Assembly: GCA_003971905.1 (NCBI GenBank)
Contig: RSEE01000086.1
Coordinates: 62,001 to 126,000, forward strand
Origin: Moniliella sp. 'wahieum'
Taxonomy: Eukaryota
DNA length: 64,000 bases
Direction: 5' to 3'
The notes under the pieces were generated by a model, which had not been told where the DNA came from, did no database searches, and saw only the letters and a program-made list of their open reading frames with translations. The position numbers and the translations under genes are program-made. Shown in pieces: positions 1 through 38,048 of the stretch; the stretch's first letter is position 1; each line of letters begins with the position of its first letter.

Positions 1-3000
1 ATCTAACCTCCGACTTGGTCCCGTTGCTCCTTTCGTTTCACCCTACTGTGTTCTCTGCCCTCCTGACCACCCTTGAGAACGTTCTCTTCACACCTCTTGA
101 GCATGCCGCCGAACAGGTTGCGCCTGCCACAAGGGTTGCCCTCGATCGCCCCCCACTGGATCCTCGATTGGAACTCCAAGCCGTATCTCGCTATGCCGTG
201 ACGTTGACTTGGCCTCCGGGCCCCGCATCCGAAACCCTGGTCCGAGTGCTGAGCTGATCGCGGCCGTAGCAACGGCGACACTGAGCTCACCTCATAGTCA
301 GGAGGACCTTCCTGCGCCCCAGGATGAGGAGGTGCGGTTGTTGCGCAAGCGCACTGTCGACGTCCTCTTGGCCTGGCACCGCGCTCAATTGGCCGCGATC
401 GACCTGCTCGCTCCCGGCTGAGGAAGCGTCGGTGGTCCGGGAGGAGGCACTTCAACTCCTCCACGCATGGAAGCGTTTGTCAATGTCGGAACCCTTGATG
501 GCCAAGGGCCAAGCGCAAGCGACCGAGGCACGCACGACGCTTGCACGCCTCCTTGTCGCCGCCCGCGACACACCCCGGCCATGCGCAAAGCCGTGCTGGC
601 GGCCCAGGTGGCCCGTGTGCGCGATGCCGCTAGTGGCCAGGAATCTGGGGCGCCACCGGATCGGTGGGCGACAGTCTCCTCAATGCTGTCTACTTCGACG
701 GCTGTGTACGCATCGATCGGTGCTCCGCCTCTGGCGCTCCCCGGCTCAGAGTTTGACACGAGCAGCAATCAAGATTTTGCTACGCCCTTGGCTCAGCCCA
801 CCACTCCTGCGGGCGTAGAGGACCCCAGCCCCTTTCGGCAGCACGTGGCATTGCCCGTAGCGGACGCATGGTCTCCAGCGCCAGCGCCATCGCCATCGCC
901 GACGCCGGCAGCGAGCCTGGCCCCTTCCAACTCCATCGGAACGGGGATGGCGCGGGGAGGACGGAAAAAGCTGGCGGCGCGCCGAATCCCAGCGCAGGCC
1001 CAGCTGGGTTCGGGCCCGTTCCCTTCGACGAGATGCGTGGGGGCTGGAAGAACCCCGCTTCCGGTCCCGGCCAAGCCTTCGTCCGTTCGCTCTTCCAGCG
1101 CCCTGTCCAGCCGCGCCCTGCCCTCGCGGCTGGGCCAAGTCCGCTCCTCCTCGGCGCGGGCGCGAGTGCAGGCGCAGGCACAGGCGCGCGCGCGCTTGGG
1201 CCCGGCCTGGGCCTCGCTGGCACCAGCTTGGGCGGCAGCATGGCCGGCAGCGTGTCGGGCAGTGTGCGGGCAGCGTTGCGGGCAGCGCGGCGGGGAGTCC
1301 CCCGTTGCGCCCGTCGCCCAGCCCGGTGCCCGTGCCCGTTCTGGGGTCCGATCTGGGCTCCAGCGCGCTGCCCTCGTCGCCGCGCCCGGTAGTGGCCAGT
1401 CCTCCTCCGTTGCCCAGCACGCTGTCTACGTTGGGGCACAGCCCTGCCTTGCCCTCGGCGCCCAGCCCGTCCTTGGCGTCCCCGCCGCTCCCCGGCCCTC
1501 TGGCGGGCTCGTCATGGGCAGGACTCGCTTCGGCCGCCACCAGCCCGCCGCAGGCACCTGCGCTCGCCCTGTCCCCGCGCCGCGCCTATTCCCCCTTTAG
1601 TCTCGCGCTGCCCCGCAAGCGCACGCGCGCATCCCCCTCCTCGGCCCCGCGGCGGCCCAGTGCGACGCTGAGCTCCCACATGTCCCTCTCCCCGCGGCCC
1701 ACCTCGAGTCTGTCGCGCACGTCGTCACAAGCGTCGGTCCGCCCGGAAGAACGTGGGTTAGGGGACGCTTGGGACTTGGCTCCAGAGTCGGTTCCCTCAG
1801 AGAGCGCGAGTGCTGCTCCCACGCGCGTCGTGTCTTTGCCCCCCATTGCTTCGCCCCCGCCTCCGCCTACCGCCCCTTCCCCGCCCCTGGGCAAGGCGAG
1901 CGAGCCGAGGAGTTGGATGCACTTGGTTTCTGCTGCATCTGCAGCGCTGGCTGATCATAGTTCGCCTGGTGAAGATGCCTGGGACTTGGGCGACGACACG
2001 TTCCGCCCGAAGGAGCCAGCGGTTTCGCGCCTGCCTGCGACTGAGAAGGCTGGCGTACCAACCTCTACGCCTCCGTCGGGGCTCTTGCGACGCGGCGGAC
2101 GAGTGGGATTTCTCAGGCGAGTCATCTGCGGCAGTGCCCGCGCCGGAGCCGGTCGAGCGTCTGCGTACGCCTCCTGTTCCTGCTGACGAAAGCTTCTCGC
2201 GTACGGCTAACGAGCTGGAGATGGTCACGCCGTCGCCATCTCAACAGGGCGGGTGGAAGCACGAGGCTCCTCCTTCGCCATCGCCGTTGCAGCACGACGC
2301 GTGGGACCTCGAGCTGCCCTCATCGTCGGCGCCTCGAGCTTCTTCGCCTCCGCCCTCCATCCCAGCTGCCCCGTCTTCCCAAACCTTGCCCGTCCTGCCG
2401 TTGTCCTCGGAAGCTGCCTTGCCTACTTCCCGCCCCGGCTCTGTTGCCAGCATGGATGCCGTGGCATCGCCTGACCACGCCGGGTCGCCCAGTCCTGCTG
2501 AGCCCGGTCTGGGTCTGGCCTCCCCCCCAGCTACAGCGGCCGACACGCTCGTTGTGAACCCGCAGCTGGCCGACCAAGCTAGCTTGGCCTCTCCCCCCTG
2601 ATCACGGACGATCAAGAGGGCGCCCGAACCCCCCGCCCGCCCGAGGGGCTAGTCCAGCCCTCTACTGCTTTCTACACCGCCACTGGCCCCGTCTGCCGCG
2701 GCGGACCAAGGAAGCGAGGCGGGCGGATGGGACCTCTCTTCCCCTACGCGCCCTGCTGCGATGGACGGTTCGGTCGCCAGCTACGCCCGTGCCGTTCTTG
2801 GAGAATGCGATGCCGGCCCCACCCCGGTCGTCTGCCGCTGCGCACAACGCGCATCTCACCCTCCCCGCTGGGCACGACGACGCTGGCACGCAGGCAGGCC
2901 CCGCGCTGGGCGGATGGGACAACGGCACGGAAGGGTGGGACTTTTCGTCGGATGACGCTCTGGATTCCTATGACGGCACGGCGGAGGACCATCCTGCCGA

Positions 3001-6000
3001 TATCGACAGTCACGCTGCTGTCCGTCGTGGCTCGGACACTGTTGCGCCCATGCCAGAGGGAAGCACCGCTGAGCGCGAAGGATGGTGAGGTGGGCTCGTT
3101 GGTTTCGGACGGAGGGGTAGTCGCCGTCGACGCCGCTGGGCCCCTGCCGTCTGCCTTGCCGCCCACCCACCTGGCCGGTCTCAACCTGGATCAAGGGGAG
3201 CCCCTTCCGCCCCCGATCGGCCGGTGCGCTTCTCCCGCCAGTGCCTGCGTCTACGCAAAACACCCTTTCTCCACCCTTGGAAGCGAGCCTGCCGGAGCAT
3301 GGGGCACCCGAACCGGTGGAACCCGCCGGCCCAACGAATGGGACTTCTCGACACACCAGACCCCTGGCGGCGATACTGTGCCAGGGCCGACTGAAGAGCC
3401 GCCGGCGCTCACTTCGCCTCTGCCTGTTGAGGACGAAGGATGGGACCTTTCGCCTGAGCTGGCGCCGGCGCCATTGCCAGATACGCTGGTGGATCCGGAC
3501 GCGGGGCAGGTGGTGGACGCGGGTGCCGAGGAACATGTCTTGCCGCCTCTGACGACCCAACCCTCGGCGGTGCACGTCCCTCCGCCCACCTCCTCCATCC
3601 GGGACGGAGGAAGGTCAGCCGCTAGACATCACCGAGGACGACGGATGGGACTTTTCACCCAAGAGGTGCCTGCGTCTTGCTCTCGCCAGAGCAGGTACAC
3701 AGGAAGGCCAACCGCTGCATGAGCATGGTCCCCATGAGGCGCATTCTTTGCCTGGCCCGACCGCATCCCCCCCGTTCTCTTCTCCGCCCGGGCGCCGGGA
3801 CCGGGGAAGGTCAACCTCTGAACGTGGATCAGCATGGTGCATGGGGGGCTTTGCCCGACCTGGTATCAGCGCCTCTTGATCTCGACACGAAAGCGGGTAC
3901 GCAGGAAGGCCAGCCACTGGATGTGAAGGATGTGGAGACTGGGAGGTAGGCCATGCCTTGGAACGGGAACCGGAGACCCTTGCCACGCAGGACGAGCGTC
4001 TGTCGTCGGCTCCACCTCACAGGGGGGATGATGCGCATATCGAACGGACGGGGAGGATGCGTGGGACTTGTCGGCCAAGGCGGCGTCTCCGCCCCTGGCT
4101 TTCCCCACTCACGCGGGTACCGAGGCGGCCCAGGTGGGCGCTCCGGCCGAACAGGAGCAGCCTCTAAACGATACGGGCGATGATGCATGGGGTTTCTCGC
4201 CCGAGCTGGAACCTGCGCCCTTCCTCTAACCTCGCAGGCAAGTACGCAGGAGAGGCAAGCACTGGACGTGAACGTGAACGTTGGTCAGGCGGACTCGACC
4301 GAGGCACCTGAGCCTGAGCTCGTGACGGCCCAGAACAAGCACATTGCCTCTTTGGCGTTGAGGTGGAGGAAGAGAAACTTCAGGACATCCCTGGCGATGC
4401 TGGATGGGACTTCTCGCCCGAGCTGGCACCTGCGCTCTTCCTCTATCCACTCAGGCAGGTACGCAAGAGGGATACCGCTGAATGTGCCGGTGTTGGTCCA
4501 TGCCGTCCTTCGCGCAGCGAGCGTGCCGTTGGTAGCTCCGACGCTGGGACGGAGCAGGCGCATGCTCTTGATACTGATATGCTGAGGACGATGGATGGGG
4601 ATTTTCGCCCGAGTGGCCCCCGCGGATCTTGCTCAGACACCCAAGCAGGTACCCAGGAAGGCCAACCGCTGGATGTGGATGTTGGCCTTGCCTTTGCCCC
4701 TGGCGCTCCGTCCGCCACGGCGCCTGATGAAGCTGTTCCCAGTGCCGATAGGGAGGATTATCGGCAAGTCAGTGCTGACGCAGAGGATGCGTGGGACTTG
4801 TCGCCGGTGCTGGCCCTGCCACGCATCTGCCCAGCCACAGCGAAGCCGGCGCGAAGAAGGAGGCGACGCTGTTGGAGCCTGCGGGATCTGCCACAGCACC
4901 GCTCTCACCCCCTGCTGCTGATGCGCCTCTGCCCGTCTCTGGTGCTGGAGCGGAGGAAAAGGCGCTCGACATTGCCAGTGATGAGGGTGGGATTGTCTCC
5001 GCCGCTGGCACCCGCGCCCCTGCTCCCCACCGAAGCGCACGCAGCAGAGGAGGATCAGCCCGGGACATGAATATGACCAAGCATTTCTGCCAACCCATTT
5101 CACGGTCGACGACAAGGCGCTGCACGCGTCTGGCGTTGCGACCGAGGAAGGGCCGTCTCCACGTGGCTGGTGATGACGGATGGGGCTTCTCGCCGGAGAT
5201 AGCACCAGTGGCCCTCCCTCCCGACACCCCTGTCGAAGCGGAGACGATCCAGCTGCAGCAAGACGTTGGCCATTCTGGCGTGTCAGAGACAAGGCCGTTT
5301 GTCGCTGGAGACGGTTGTTATTGATCTCGGCGCTGGGACGGAGGAAGGGCAGCCCCTGGATGTGGGAGGGTGATGGATGGGGCTTTTCTCAAGACGTTCC
5401 ACCTGAGGCCCTTCTGGGATGATGTCCAAGCCGGAACAGACGAGGGCCAGCCATTGGATCTGGACAATGGCCGCGTATTTGTGCCCGAGACCGAGATCCA
5501 CTCCTTCACCGCCACGGATGAGCATCTGCTGGTCCGGCTGCTGGCCCGAGGAAGGACAGCCCCTGGACACGGCAGCGAGGATGGGTGGGACTTGTCACCC
5601 AAATACTTGCGTCCATTCCCTCTCATGCTCAGGCCGACCAGGAGCCTTCTTTCGCTGGGTGACAGAGCCGCACGGACATACAGGCCATGATGGGGTGGAT
5701 CTACCTCGCTTGAGGGTGCGTTTGGACTTCCTTGGTGGCATCTTGAGACTGACTGTGGAATGCTCTCAGAAAACACGACCGACGAACATGAAGACGATTT
5801 TGCCCCCTTACCTCCACAAGGATCTGATGGCAAAACTCAGGCGGCCTTCTTCTTAACGAAGACGAGTGCCTCTACATTTGACACCAACCTACCAAGCGGT
5901 CGTTCGCAGACATGACAGCATCTACGAGGACACCCCCGCTTCACGGCGTTTCGGATACGGTCGTCAGTCAGGCGGATGCTGAGCTCGACACGGATGGTTG

Positions 6001-8482
6001 GGATCTCCCCGTTCTTGCCCTGCTCTGTCCTGCCCCTCTTCTGCTCTGCCCTGTGCTTGCTTCCCAGGCTGTGGCAAACCCGGCCCAAAGCCCCGCTATG
6101 GATGAAGGACGCACAAGCGGACGAGTGGGACTTTGAGACGGATCCGCTGGCGGGAACCCAGGAAGGGCAGCCTCTCGACTTGCGTTCGAGTCCTGACCTT
6201 CACCGTTCTCAACCGCAGGACGAATGCTGGGACTTGTCCCCCCGCTCGTTGGTGCACCCTCGCCGCCCTCGAACATGCTTCCTGAAACTGGGCCTATTCA
6301 TCTCCAGCACGCACCTCTACCCAAAAAACACGCTCACCGCCACTACAGCTGAGAGAGAGCCCAGCGTTGATGCTGCCCCGAGGGGGCAGCAGCTGACGTG
6401 GTGCCCGAGCGGTTCGAGGCAAGTCCTGGACCGACGGCGCCTACACCTGATCAAGCCGAGCAAACGTCCTTTACGTTGCACGAAGAAGAACCACATGCCG
6501 GACCTGAATCGAGTGCGATGGCAGAAGACGCCTGGGATCTGGATCTCGATGCGGATGACGATGCTTCGAGTCCTGCTGCGCCCCCAACCACAGATGCGAG
6601 GAGGAGGGGGTCCAGTCACCGGGTCGCTCAGACTCCTACGCCAACCACACGGCTGCTGCCCCCCCACCCAAGGGGAGCGAGGGCACGTCTGGCAGTTCGT
6701 GGGACGCGCTCAGTCGCAATTCCTCTCCCTTTGTGCACGCCTCGCCTCCTTCGTACGGCCGGGGTCAGGGCGGGAGGTACGCCATGCAAGCGCGTCCCCC
6801 GCTGCCAACCCGCCGCCGCCCGAGGCAGATGCCCCCTTGCTGTTGTGGAGGAGAAGGGGGCCGAGGTAGGGTCTGGGGCCGAGCCGCCGTACCCAAGCGG
6901 CGAAGGCAGTTCGGATCCGTGGGACCTTTCCTCTTCGCCCTCGCGGGCGCACAGCAACGACGAAGATGATAAGGAGGAGAGGGCGAGGTGGACACGCTCC
7001 TTGGGTCTCGCCCGCCCCGCGCAGCGGACCAACCGCATGTGGCGCCTCCCGCCCACCCTTCCTCAGACTTGCGCATGCGGCCCTGAGTCGAACGGCGGGT
7101 GCCGAGGCGGAAGCACATACCCCTTCTGCGGCTGCCACTGAGGCACGTGAAAGAGGGGTGCCGTTGTTGACTGTCGCACCTGCCGCCGCCGCCGCGGAAG
7201 AGGAGGGTATGTGGGGGTGGGGCGAAGAGGGTGACGGGTCGATGGCCGTGGCGGGTATGCCATCGTCGCAGGTGCGCTCTGCGCCCACCCCACCCCCGCT
7301 CGCACCCGCGCTGCCGACGGAAGAGGCGTATCAGATCTCGGTCCGTACCGAGTCGGTGCGGGCGCAGCTGGAGGAGCTGGTTGCGCTGTACGAACGTGCT
7401 ACCGCGGCGGATGGTAGTGGTGCGGGAGGGTTGACCTTGCCGAGCTCGCCGAGCTGGCGGGAGTGGAAGAAGTGAAGGAGGTTATGGAGCTGGCTGGTGC
7501 GCACGAATCCGTGCCGTCTGGCAGCACGCTTCCCGCCCTGTGCAAGCCAGCGTGGTGGACGCGGTGGACGTGTACATTGCCACGCTGCCCGCCACGTATG
7601 GGGCCGAGGCGAGCAGTGTGCCTGCGCTGGCCGGGCAGTACGCCAACGACTGTGCGACGATGGCCGCGTGGGTGCAAGCGGCTGCGATGCGCATGGGCGA
7701 GGCGGTGCAGGAGCGCTGCACGAGCGAGCCGAGCGTCTGGGCATGATGGGTCACGAATGCTTTGAGCATCAATTGGTACGTTGCGATCGCCGCCTCATCG
7801 ATTCATCGATTCATCCTGTCCTTCTTGTTGCGACTGAGCGGACTGACTAACCACCTCCCCTCTGTGCGAATGGAATGACAGCGTGTGCAAGAAGGCCTCG
7901 TGTCCCGCAGCTTGCTCTCGGCCGGGGGCTTTGGGGCTGGCGAATGTACATCGGTTCGGAGCGGCAGAGAAGGCGGTGGCGCAGGTGGTGGGCACGCTGG
8001 CGTCGCTGGCACGTGCATGGCAAGGCGTTGTGCCGGCGAGCGCGACGGCGCGTGCGCTGGGCCGCCTGGCCAACCTGGCGCTGGCCAGCGTTGTGGGCCA
8101 GATCGAAGCGCTGGAGGACATCTCGGACAACGAGAGCCGGCGCTTGGAGCAGCTGTGTTCGCAGCTGCGTCGCCCGCTGGGGCGCATGGTGGCCGCGGCG
8201 GCGCTGGGCCTGGACGCGGGCGCGGCCGCCGACGCGGCCCAAGCCGAGGCGGCCGGGTGACGGACGAACGGGCGTCGGCGGTGGCCGCGCCGTTTGTGCC
8301 ACCTGGTTCAAGGCGACTACTTGGCCGATGTGCTGACCGGCTCGTTGGCCGACATTGCCTTTCTCTGGGGCGAAGCAGGCGCGTTGCGCGACTTTGCCCC
8401 GCCGAGCTCACCCAGCTCCTCCGCCCTCTTTTCCGATTCGGCCAAGCGGGCCGAACTGATTGCGCGCATCGAGCGCAGCTAA
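1..8482 (+). CDS. DSL1/ZW10: ZW10/Dsl1-family tethering subunit (5' end outside window) with a giant acidic-Trp repeat insertion; multiple apparent frameshifts; intron 7776-7881
   Basis: C-terminal motifs read across frames: EEAYQISVRTESV (post-lasso), QYANDCATMAAWV (ZW10 NDC/NNC motif), VVGQIEALEDISDNESRRL, LADVLTGSLADIAFLWGEAGALRDF...ELTQLL.ALFSDSAKRAELIARIERS* (TAA 8480-8482). Helical N-terminal part 1-650. Intron GTACGT(7776)...GACTAAC(7845)...CAG(7881). Confidence 0.8.
860..7230 (+). repeat. Coding protein-level repeat: about 25-30 [DE]x(G/A/E)W[DG][FL]S(PE) motifs, with about 12-15 AGT[QE]EGQPLD motifs interleaved in 3690-6180
   Basis: Trp motifs near 1764 DAWDL, 1974 EDAWDL, 2098 DEWDFS, 2296 DAWDL, 2931 EGWDFS, 3433 DEGWDLSPE, 3637 DDGWDFSP, 4397 DAGWDFSPE, 4589 DDGWGFSPE, 5173 DDGWGFSPE, 6120 DEWDFE, 6525 EDAWDLD, 7209 MWGWGEE. 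GTQEGQPL-type motifs near 3691, 3794, 3893, 4645, 5331, 5430, 6150. Confidence 0.9.
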
Positions 8483-34972: not shown

Positions 34973-37534
<2,562 letters not shown>

Positions 37535-38048
37535 GGCAAAGAAAGCATTGTCAGAATTGTCGCTTGGCCTTGACTTTTGCTTGGCTTTGGCTTTGGCCCC
37601 GCTGGTTCCATCCTAGGGAGGGAAACGCATCCCTGTAATCTTCTTCCCTATGTGGTTTGAATTGAACGTTGAACCGAATCCATGTGTTCCCGAATCTAAA
37701 GGCGCCCCAGTACAAGGATTCCTATAGCATTCCTATAGAATAGAGATGCCGCGCCATGGACCTGGGGTCTGGTGGGAATCCGACGCGACGACCCACCAAG
37801 GACAAACAGGGACCGGCACAGTATCTACATGCGAGAGAACCAACCCTGGGTACCCTGGGTGGCACTGGGTGGCACTGGAGCCAGTAGGAATGTTTTGGTT
37901 GGGGAGGGATACAAGGCGATACATAGCGCTGACAAAATGAATCCAGCTTGGCCGCCAACAACGAAGGACAAGATATGTGGGGCAGGTGTGTAAACGAATG
38001 CCCAACGCGCCTGCCGCCTGGGGGCAAGGTCCAAGTCCAAGGTCCAAG

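Follow-up and report, generated by a model that had tools for sequence, protein, structure and literature searches.

A 64,000-nucleotide stretch of DNA from Moniliella sp. 'wahieum' (contig RSEE01000086.1; this whole stretch is called the window) carries, in positions 1 to 8482 of its + strand, what is likely the gene for Dsl1/ZW10, a subunit of the Dsl1/NRZ tether of the endoplasmic reticulum (ER). In the account that we consider likely, the lasso of this protein, a loop inside the polypeptide, is about 2,100 residues long, is multivalent and acts as a catcher of COPI vesicles, and the breaks in the reading frame are deletions in the assembly. The Dsl1/ZW10 identity is supported by a C-terminal flank that matches ZW10 in Pfam, by a close relative of this flank (P0001), by an anchor sequence at the start of the lasso and by a terminal W-x-W motif. 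These findings uphold in part the original prediction, made from the letters alone, of a ZW10/Dsl1 protein with a multivalent lasso enlarged approximately 20-fold.

In published work, the lasso of Saccharomyces cerevisiae Dsl1 is described as a disordered segment (residues 378-488) that is inserted in domain C, lies at the tip of the ~25-nm Dsl1 complex and captures COPI vesicles. Like the loop in the window, it is a disordered acidic loop in the C-terminal half of a Dsl1/ZW10 subunit, with Trp motifs that include W-x-W. The yeast lasso has 111 residues and a handful of Trp residues, whereas the loop in the window has ~2,100 residues, ~23 stereotyped motifs and W-G-W. Also unlike the yeast lasso, the window motifs are mostly of the form W-D/G-L/F-S-P, and the loop is partly a tandem array of modules. 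Homologues outside the Dikarya are described in a review as having no lasso.

The putative lasso and its flanks

The C-terminal flank is, judged by its sequence, ZW10/Dsl1. The reading of 7847-8257 scores 40.1 bits (cut-off 27; E 5.1e-10) with Pfam ZW10_C2 (PF22766), and 8261-8479 aligns to positions 99-152 of the same profile (E 0.056). When 7847-8257 was used as a query, an exhaustive phmmer search returned 59 proteins at E <=1e-3, and a word-index protein search of the 'longer' band returned no match. The best relative, P0001, has 54% identity over 197 amino acids (aa) by tblastn (E 4.7e-51) and itself matches residues 587-777 of human ZW10 in PDB 7qpg (E 2e-16). A much longer homologue, P0023, is 33% identical to the flank (tblastn, E 1.9e-13).

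The ZW10_C2 helical domain lies in the last exon (7882..8482, + strand, stop codon TAA at 8480-8482), which contains at least two further frame breaks. This exon is preceded by a probable fungal intron of 106 nt (7776..7881, + strand; GTACGT...ACTGACTAAC...ACAG, G+C content (GC) 0.54), and the protein of P0001, as called from an open reading frame (ORF), begins just upstream of the same intron point. Before the intron, the helical C-terminal half (ZW10_C region, 7329..7775, + strand) resumes with Y-Q-I-S at 7329-7340 and is read in three frames. Here a 103-aa piece matches Pfam ZW10_C (PF20666) weakly, with 15.1 bits where the cut-off is 25.8 (E 0.023), and Pfam found no ZW10_C match in the alternative frames of this flank. 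As judged by eye, '...SVPALAGQYAND...' is collinear with '...SVPAIGMQFAND...' of the giant homologues.

On the other side, the start of the lasso is marked by the anchor R-K-K-L-A-A-R-R-I...Q-L-G-S-G-P-F (947..1021, + strand), which was found both by tblastn and with a profile hidden Markov model (HMM). It matches the Dsl1 proteins of Testicularia, Moesziomyces and Ustilago at residues ~340-365 (best tblastn E 3e-4) and that of Pseudozyma flocculosa at residues 609-634 (tblastn). When the whole window was searched as 1,478 six-frame pieces, an HMM of the pre-lasso region of this lineage matched only the anchor (911-1024), with E 5.7e-4. The corresponding HMM from Microbotryomycetes had no match within the gene, and members of that class carry K-R-G-K-L-G-A-A-R-I at the place of the anchor. 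In the window, an acidic W-G-L stands close behind the anchor (at 1038); it does so too, within ~10 residues, in P. flocculosa, the one relative inspected for this. At the level of sequence, 947-1021 is the only significant link to Dsl1 on the N-terminal side.

More generally, the lasso begins with a conserved linear motif of basic character, (K/R)-(K/R)-x-K-L-G-A-x-(R/K)-I, in the Dsl1 proteins of both Ustilaginomycotina and Microbotryomycetes (at residues ~340-620). We found no described partner for this motif.

From the anchor to Y-Q-I-S is a distance of 6,361 nt, or ~2,120 residues, and Trp motifs recur through most of it. We defined a strict site as D or E within two residues before W, followed by [DG] and then by [FL]. 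A three-frame scan of 650-7320 found 21 strict sites on the + strand and 0 on the - strand, and the rest of the window (55.4 kb) has two on the + strand and 0 on the - strand. Dinucleotide-preserving shuffles (n=300) gave a mean of 0.19 sites and a maximum of 2, which places the + strand count of 650-7320 ~100-fold above the shuffle expectation. With two relaxed copies (GGWDL at 2728 and AGWDF at 4405), the aligned set has 23 members. The motif region contains 30 Trp codons with acidic context, a few of which are probably off-frame, and the earlier count of 25 to 30 acidic Trp motifs was thus a fair one.

The 23 motifs form a strand-specific field (1038..6931, + strand) that uses all three + frames, with W codons at 1038, 1770, 1980, 2104, 2302, 2728, 2936, 3339, 3441, 3646, 4062, 4188, 4405, 4596, 4792, 5181, 5378, 5586, 5999, 6126, 6228, 6533 and 6920. 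Their consensus is (E/G)(D/E)-D-(G/A)-W-(D/G)-(L/F)-S-P-(E/D). The residue before W is G or A in 18 of the 23 copies and E in three, the residue after it is D in 18, and position +2 is Leu in 13 (W-x-L) and Phe in 10 (W-x-F). The copies use different synonymous codons: at -2, D is encoded by GAT (10) or GAC (7), L by TTG (6), CTC (3), CTG (2) or CTT (2), F by TTC (5) or TTT (5), and S by TCG (9), TCA (3), TCT (2) or TCC (2). The DNA that flanks the copies has a mean nucleotide identity of 0.40 (maximum 0.75). Because the motif residues are kept while codons and flanking DNA diverge, we take the motif to be an old, translated peptide motif that is under selection.

Part of the field is organized as a central array of a lineage-specific module (3601..6190, + strand), in which A-G-T-(Q/E)-E-G-Q-P-L-D is followed after a few residues by D-D-G-W-D-F-S-P-E-L-A-P-A-P-L. 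The core E-G-Q-P-L has nine copies between 3610 and 6162, and it is present in none of 70 homologues of at least 1,000 aa. At the DNA level, Tandem Repeats Finder reported only short simple repeats, with periods of 6-12 nt; it listed neither a longer-period array nor one of the protein module, which makes a collapsed or inflated repeat unlikely.

The field is followed by the acidic di-Trp motif E-E-E-G-M-W-G-W-G-E-E-G-D (7209..7220, + strand), which lies ~37 residues before Y-Q-I-S. The predicted di-Trp at 7209, just before a conserved Y-x-I-S, is borne out by M-W-G-W at 7209-7220 and Y-Q-I-S at 7329-7340. Of 58 homologues, 25 likewise carry an acidic W-x-W 3-114 residues ahead of the C-terminal domain, and 16 of the 18 listed giants are among them.

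A composition-guided reading of the lasso gives P 14.3%, A 14.7% and S 10.3% (39% together), with D+E 14.9% and K+R 4.4% and an approximate net charge near -200. These values agree with the Pro/Ala/acidic-rich field originally described, and they are partly circular because the composition scoring was trained on acidic lassos. No other gene is recognizable between the flanks, since none of 74 ORF pieces of at least 70 aa from both strands of 1-7750 has a Pfam match at E <=0.01. A search of the ESM Atlas with a two-motif piece gave no usable match. Within the lasso, 5690-5990 has lower GC (~0.57) and is without a Trp motif or a convincing frame; it may contain a small intron (5716-5769) or be a badly assembled piece.

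Broken reading frames and probable assembly error

Several observations weigh against a single functional Dsl1/ZW10 gene with a COPI-catching lasso. No single ORF spans 650-7320; the stop-to-stop frames of the + strand are short and overlapping, and the motifs occur in all three + frames, so that the predicted continuous ORF across the region is not present in the assembly. Depending on the method, at least 15-41 frame corrections are needed across the motif region. Guided readings take 21-41 corrections in 6.4 kb, which is ~3-6 per kb, compared with ~2 per kb in the CDC48 gene of the same window. The minimal number of frame switches that avoids stop codons is 15 on the + strand and 22 on the - strand, with 12-42 in other 6.3-kb stretches, and the antisense strand of CDC48 takes 0. 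On the N-terminal side, pieces of 1-650 gave no significant Pfam or HMM match, and Pfam is silent up to 946. Finally, Leu occupies +2 in 13 of the 23 motifs, and these thus may not fit a di-aromatic delta-COP motif.

Some of these points say less than they seem to. GC is 57-76% across the first 12 kb of the window, and in GC-rich DNA the stop-avoidance counts fail to separate coding from noncoding sequence; we therefore rejected them as a coding test, and ORF continuity is not demonstrable here. GC3 periodicity was likewise rejected as a guide to frame, because its signal is too weak, and a codon-usage Viterbi reading, which missed known motifs, served only as a lower bound on corrections. For the N-terminal side, Pfam missed the N-termini in five of five full-length basidiomycete homologues that were scanned, so its silence on 1-946 says little. 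Moreover, tblastn with the N-termini of giant homologues gave weak and individually nonsignificant matches that are collinear in the window, at 186, 314 and 557-643. We presume that 1..946 (+ strand, low-complexity from ~650) is the end of the Dsl1/ZW10 N-terminal half, the part that interacts with Tip20/RINT1, and the start of the gene is probably at the left edge of the window or outside it. As to the helical ZW10-like blocks that were originally seen on both sides of the lasso, the C-terminal one is confirmed by the ZW10_C2 match, and the N-terminal one (1-650) found no counterpart in Pfam or HMM searches.

The CDC48/p97 gene (35133-37528, + strand) offers a comparison, because it matches p97/Cdc48 structures without gaps while the frame changes. 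For example, one stretch of 12 residues is in a different frame amid a continuous alignment. Relative to a 93%-identical relative, CDC48 needs five frame corrections over 2.4 kb, with no room for introns, and each of the four frame junctions that we inspected is a 1-2-nt deletion in a short run. That an essential gene is broken in this manner implies frequent small deletions in the assembly, and it points to assembly error, rather than introns or gene decay, as the source of the frame breaks in the ZW10 locus. The correction density of the ZW10 region is of the same order as that of CDC48, but higher.

We rejected introns as the cause of the frame hopping, because the frames switch within tens of bases, which is too short for introns, and because CDC48 is frame-broken where the homologous protein is contiguous. 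A scan for intron signals found one convincing intron only, at 7776-7881.

Alternatively, the 6.7 kb between the flanks might lie outside one functional gene, as a decayed pseudogene, as a separate gene between two fragments or as a misassembled repeat. The frames that are broken throughout, the correction density above that of CDC48 and the N-terminal flank that could not be identified would all fit this explanation. Against it, CDC48 is broken in the same way, Dsl1-specific anchors stand at both ends of the region in the correct order, motif residues are conserved across diverged DNA, and Tandem Repeats Finder listed no array with a period above 12 nt. In addition, the ORFs of homologues that share this architecture are unbroken, and Pfam found no other domain in the region. 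We regard this alternative as very improbable. In the favored reading, that of a giant-lasso Dsl1/ZW10 gene with assembly deletions, we infer one continuous protein across both halves, while the assembly of the window is too poor to prove one ORF by itself.

Two side observations concern annotation. A spurious 845-aa ORF runs antisense to CDC48 (35078-37612). The assembly as a whole has probably not been polished, and annotating the window from its ORFs is unreliable.

Giant lassos in other basidiomycetes

Lasso length in homologues was taken as the stretch from the anchor to the C-terminal domain. A protein search limited to 1,642-5,228 aa yielded 28 homologues. Nineteen of these, from Rhodotorula, Rhodosporidiobolus and Sporobolomyces, are intact single ORFs of 2,854-3,206 aa; seven come from other Microbotryomycetes (2,034-2,429 aa), and the last two have 1,844 and 1,859 aa. 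The lassos of the 19 Sporidiobolales giants measure 1,866-2,239 aa and hold 10-19 acidic Trp residues and 6-11 strict motifs. Their N-termini align collinearly with ordinary Dsl1/ZW10 proteins of 833-1,082 aa (E 1e-11 to 1e-5), which indicates that they are true giants, not fusions.

A fusion with a Ytm1 gene was considered for the giants and rejected, as the 'ytm1' label is also found on homologues of ordinary length. The names 'ribosome biogenesis protein ytm1' and 'YTM1_1' are attached to P0005, P0022, P0055, P0103, P0106, P0108, P0109, P0117 and P0118, which include both ordinary and giant lengths. This naming of Dsl1/ZW10 homologues looks like a propagated misannotation. In public records, the giant homologues are labeled hypothetical or are misnamed, and we found no account of giant Dsl1 lassos in the literature searched. 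The original remark that no example on this scale had been described accordingly holds for that literature and fails for the sequence databases, which contain lassos of equal length as hypothetical proteins.

The giants share the architecture of the window. Examples include Rhodosporidiobolus poonsookiae GAA6011922.1 (2,987 aa), Sporobolomyces koalae XP_076531643.1 (2,914 aa) and the 'ytm1' entries of Rhodotorula toruloides. Their common layout comprises an N-terminal half, a K-L-G-A-x-R/K-I anchor, a lasso of ~1,900-2,200 residues, a terminal G-W-G-W-D and ZW10_C2/Dsl1_C; as in the window, the lasso is rich in acidic residues, Pro and Ala and carries W-[DG]-[FLW] motifs. The differences are also clear. 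Their C-terminal domain is merely 30-33% identical to that of the window, their ORFs are intact, and they have 6-11 strict motifs, compared with at least 21. Their internal modules (Y-E-P repeats, V-Q-H...H-T-F-S-P-P and R-L-R-G-G) differ from those of the window, and AGTQEGQPLD occurs in none of these proteins.

One of these modules is seen more widely. R-L-R-G-G is present once or twice per lasso in Sporidiobolales giants and in one rust homologue, in total in 20 of the 70 homologues (P0023, P0045, P0047, P0097-P0111, P0024); just behind each copy lie an acidic run and the first Trp motifs. We take this sequence to be identical to the C-terminal tail of ubiquitin.

Lassos of intermediate length occur in Ustilaginomycotina. 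The Dsl1 proteins of Ustilago maydis (UMAG_05371, 1,166 aa), Moesziomyces (1,220-1,223 aa), Testicularia (1,087 aa) and Pseudozyma flocculosa (PFL1_05344, 1,631 aa) share the anchor K-L-G-A-R-x-I-R-P-Q-D-Q-L-G-S-G-P-F with the window, and by CDC48 theirs is the nearest named lineage. In this group (1,087-1,631 aa), the lasso has 353-634 aa with two to five strict motifs, and, unlike the window, the proteins inspected have no W-x-W before the C-terminal domain. Two homologues of ~1,460 aa (P0032/P0082) have 33 acidic-context Trp residues within a 665-aa lasso and 46 Trp in the whole protein, and those of Malassezia (899 aa) and Exophiala (847 aa) have two or three motifs each. Valency and length of the lasso thus appear to vary independently among fungi. 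None of three animal ZW10 representatives (animal ZW10s have 779-859 aa) contains the acidic W[DGE][FLWI] motif; in metazoan ZW10 (human, RZZ complex, PDB 7qpg) the C-terminal helical domain is homologous. Among the proteins compared, the window has the highest count of strict motifs (21).

The host lineage is probably within Ustilaginomycotina, to judge from two markers. The CDC48 piece of the window shares 83-86% identity with Tilletia, Kalmanozyma and Ceraceosorus; for Microbotryomycetes the figure is 81-82%. In a maximum-likelihood tree of CDC48 (28 rows), the window joins five Ustilaginomycotina rows with moderate support (88/83) and stands apart from a Microbotryomycetes clade (97/87). 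The Q-L-G-S-G-P-F part of the anchor is common to the window and Ustilaginomycotina only. By the CDC48 tree, the Sporidiobolales giants belong to a different subphylum from that of the window organism. Equally long lassos, if common in the clade, had been named beforehand as an observation that would count against the prediction, and this was found in part: lassos of equal length are present in the 19 Sporidiobolales of the other subphylum, and the named Ustilaginomycotina kin have 353-634 aa.

The simplest reading of this distribution is two independent lasso expansions; the alternative is an ancestral giant, followed by repeated reductions and turnover of modules. The window thus adds a second and probably independent giant lineage, with a distinct repeat module and the top strict-motif count. 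A more speculative idea, which we offer tentatively, is that two or more basidiomycete subphyla, those of this Ustilaginomycotina-like lineage and of the Sporidiobolales, enlarged the lasso independently to ~2,000 residues, each with its own modules, while the Trp motif and both anchors were kept. Such growth might reflect recurrent selection for a long, high-valency COPI-binding brush, perhaps one that, instead of being a simple tether, forms a capture net or condensate where vesicles arrive at the ER.

Proposed COPI binding and alternative roles of the motifs

If the favored reading is correct, the product of the locus would be, in a basidiomycete of high GC, the Dsl1/ZW10 member of the ER-resident Dsl1/NRZ tether. 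Its lasso would be a disordered, acidic loop with much Pro, Ala and Ser, inserted after the N-terminal half and ahead of the C-terminal CATCHR domains, with ~23 copies of D-(G/A)-W-(D/G)-(L/F)-S-P-E and a terminal W-G-W. Part of the growth to ~2,100 residues would be due to a module, a few dozen residues long (AGTQEGQPLD...DDGWDFSPELAPAPL), that was amplified in tandem. If the analogy with yeast Dsl1 holds, the Trp motifs would be weak binding sites for the mu-homology domain of delta-COP and the C-terminal domain of alpha-COP. The number of motifs and their spacing on a charged chain of ~2,100 residues would raise both avidity and capture radius, and the loop would become a long-reach, high-avidity catcher of COPI vesicles arriving at the ER.

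The proposed COPI binding by the window motifs, like the capture, uncoating or coat-condensing role first suggested from the letters, is inferred by analogy with yeast and from known interactions. According to a review, Trp motifs of the yeast lasso bind delta-COP and alpha-COP, and singleton-Trp motifs are reported to bind the alpha-COP C-terminal domain. The class description of LIG_deltaCOP1_diTrp_1 in ELM specifies Trp motifs with negatively charged flanks. The WxxF of Gcs1 is described as binding the delta-COP mu-homology domain with low micromolar affinity, and micromolar single Trp sites of this type are the kind of interaction that multivalency would strengthen. The likeness to ArfGAP1/Gcs1 extends to a Trp-based short motif, which in those proteins is a single, C-terminal W-x-x-F, whereas the window has about two dozen internal copies of W-x-F/L.

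Another account would retain the giant-lasso Dsl1/ZW10 and give its motifs a main role other than direct COPI capture: they might recruit another reader of Trp motifs, for example kinesin light chain, the ear domains of adaptors or a protein that binds GW/WG, or the loop might be an acidic entropic spacer or a condensate scaffold at ER arrival sites. With its length and its stereotyped form, D-G/A-W-D/G-L/F-S-P-E exceeds a mere Trp in acidic context, which is consistent with such a role, as is the Leu so often found at +2. In the central array, the motif is coupled to AGTQEGQPLD, which is found in none of the 70 homologues and hints at a partner peculiar to the lineage or at a larger interface; the modules peculiar to Sporidiobolales giants, including R-L-R-G-G, can be read in the same way. 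We nevertheless consider this account unlikely, because Dsl1 homologues of widely different lengths have acidic Trp motifs, the terminal WxW included, at this position, and because in yeast this loop is the element that binds COPI.

The kinesin option has a difficulty of its own. The W-acidic motif bound by the kinesin-1 light chain has acidic residues directly before and after Trp. Window motifs fail this pattern in the form just given, with an acidic residue at -1 in just three of the 23 copies and G or A there in 18.

The yeast Dsl1 lasso is a textbook example of a tether that recognizes a vesicle by its coat, and how weak, micromolar Trp-motif contacts sum to capture and uncoating is still argued. 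The proteins described here are natural variants in which the loop is ~20 times longer and holds ~10 to 25 motifs, some of them in tractable yeasts such as Rhodotorula toruloides. With Ustilago maydis as an intermediate form, these variants make up a series in valency and reach for models of avidity. From standard polymer scaling, we estimate that a disordered chain of 2,100 residues would have a radius of gyration of ~18-19 nm, compared with ~3 nm for 111 residues. The larger value is comparable to the ~25-nm height given for the whole Dsl1 complex in the structural literature.

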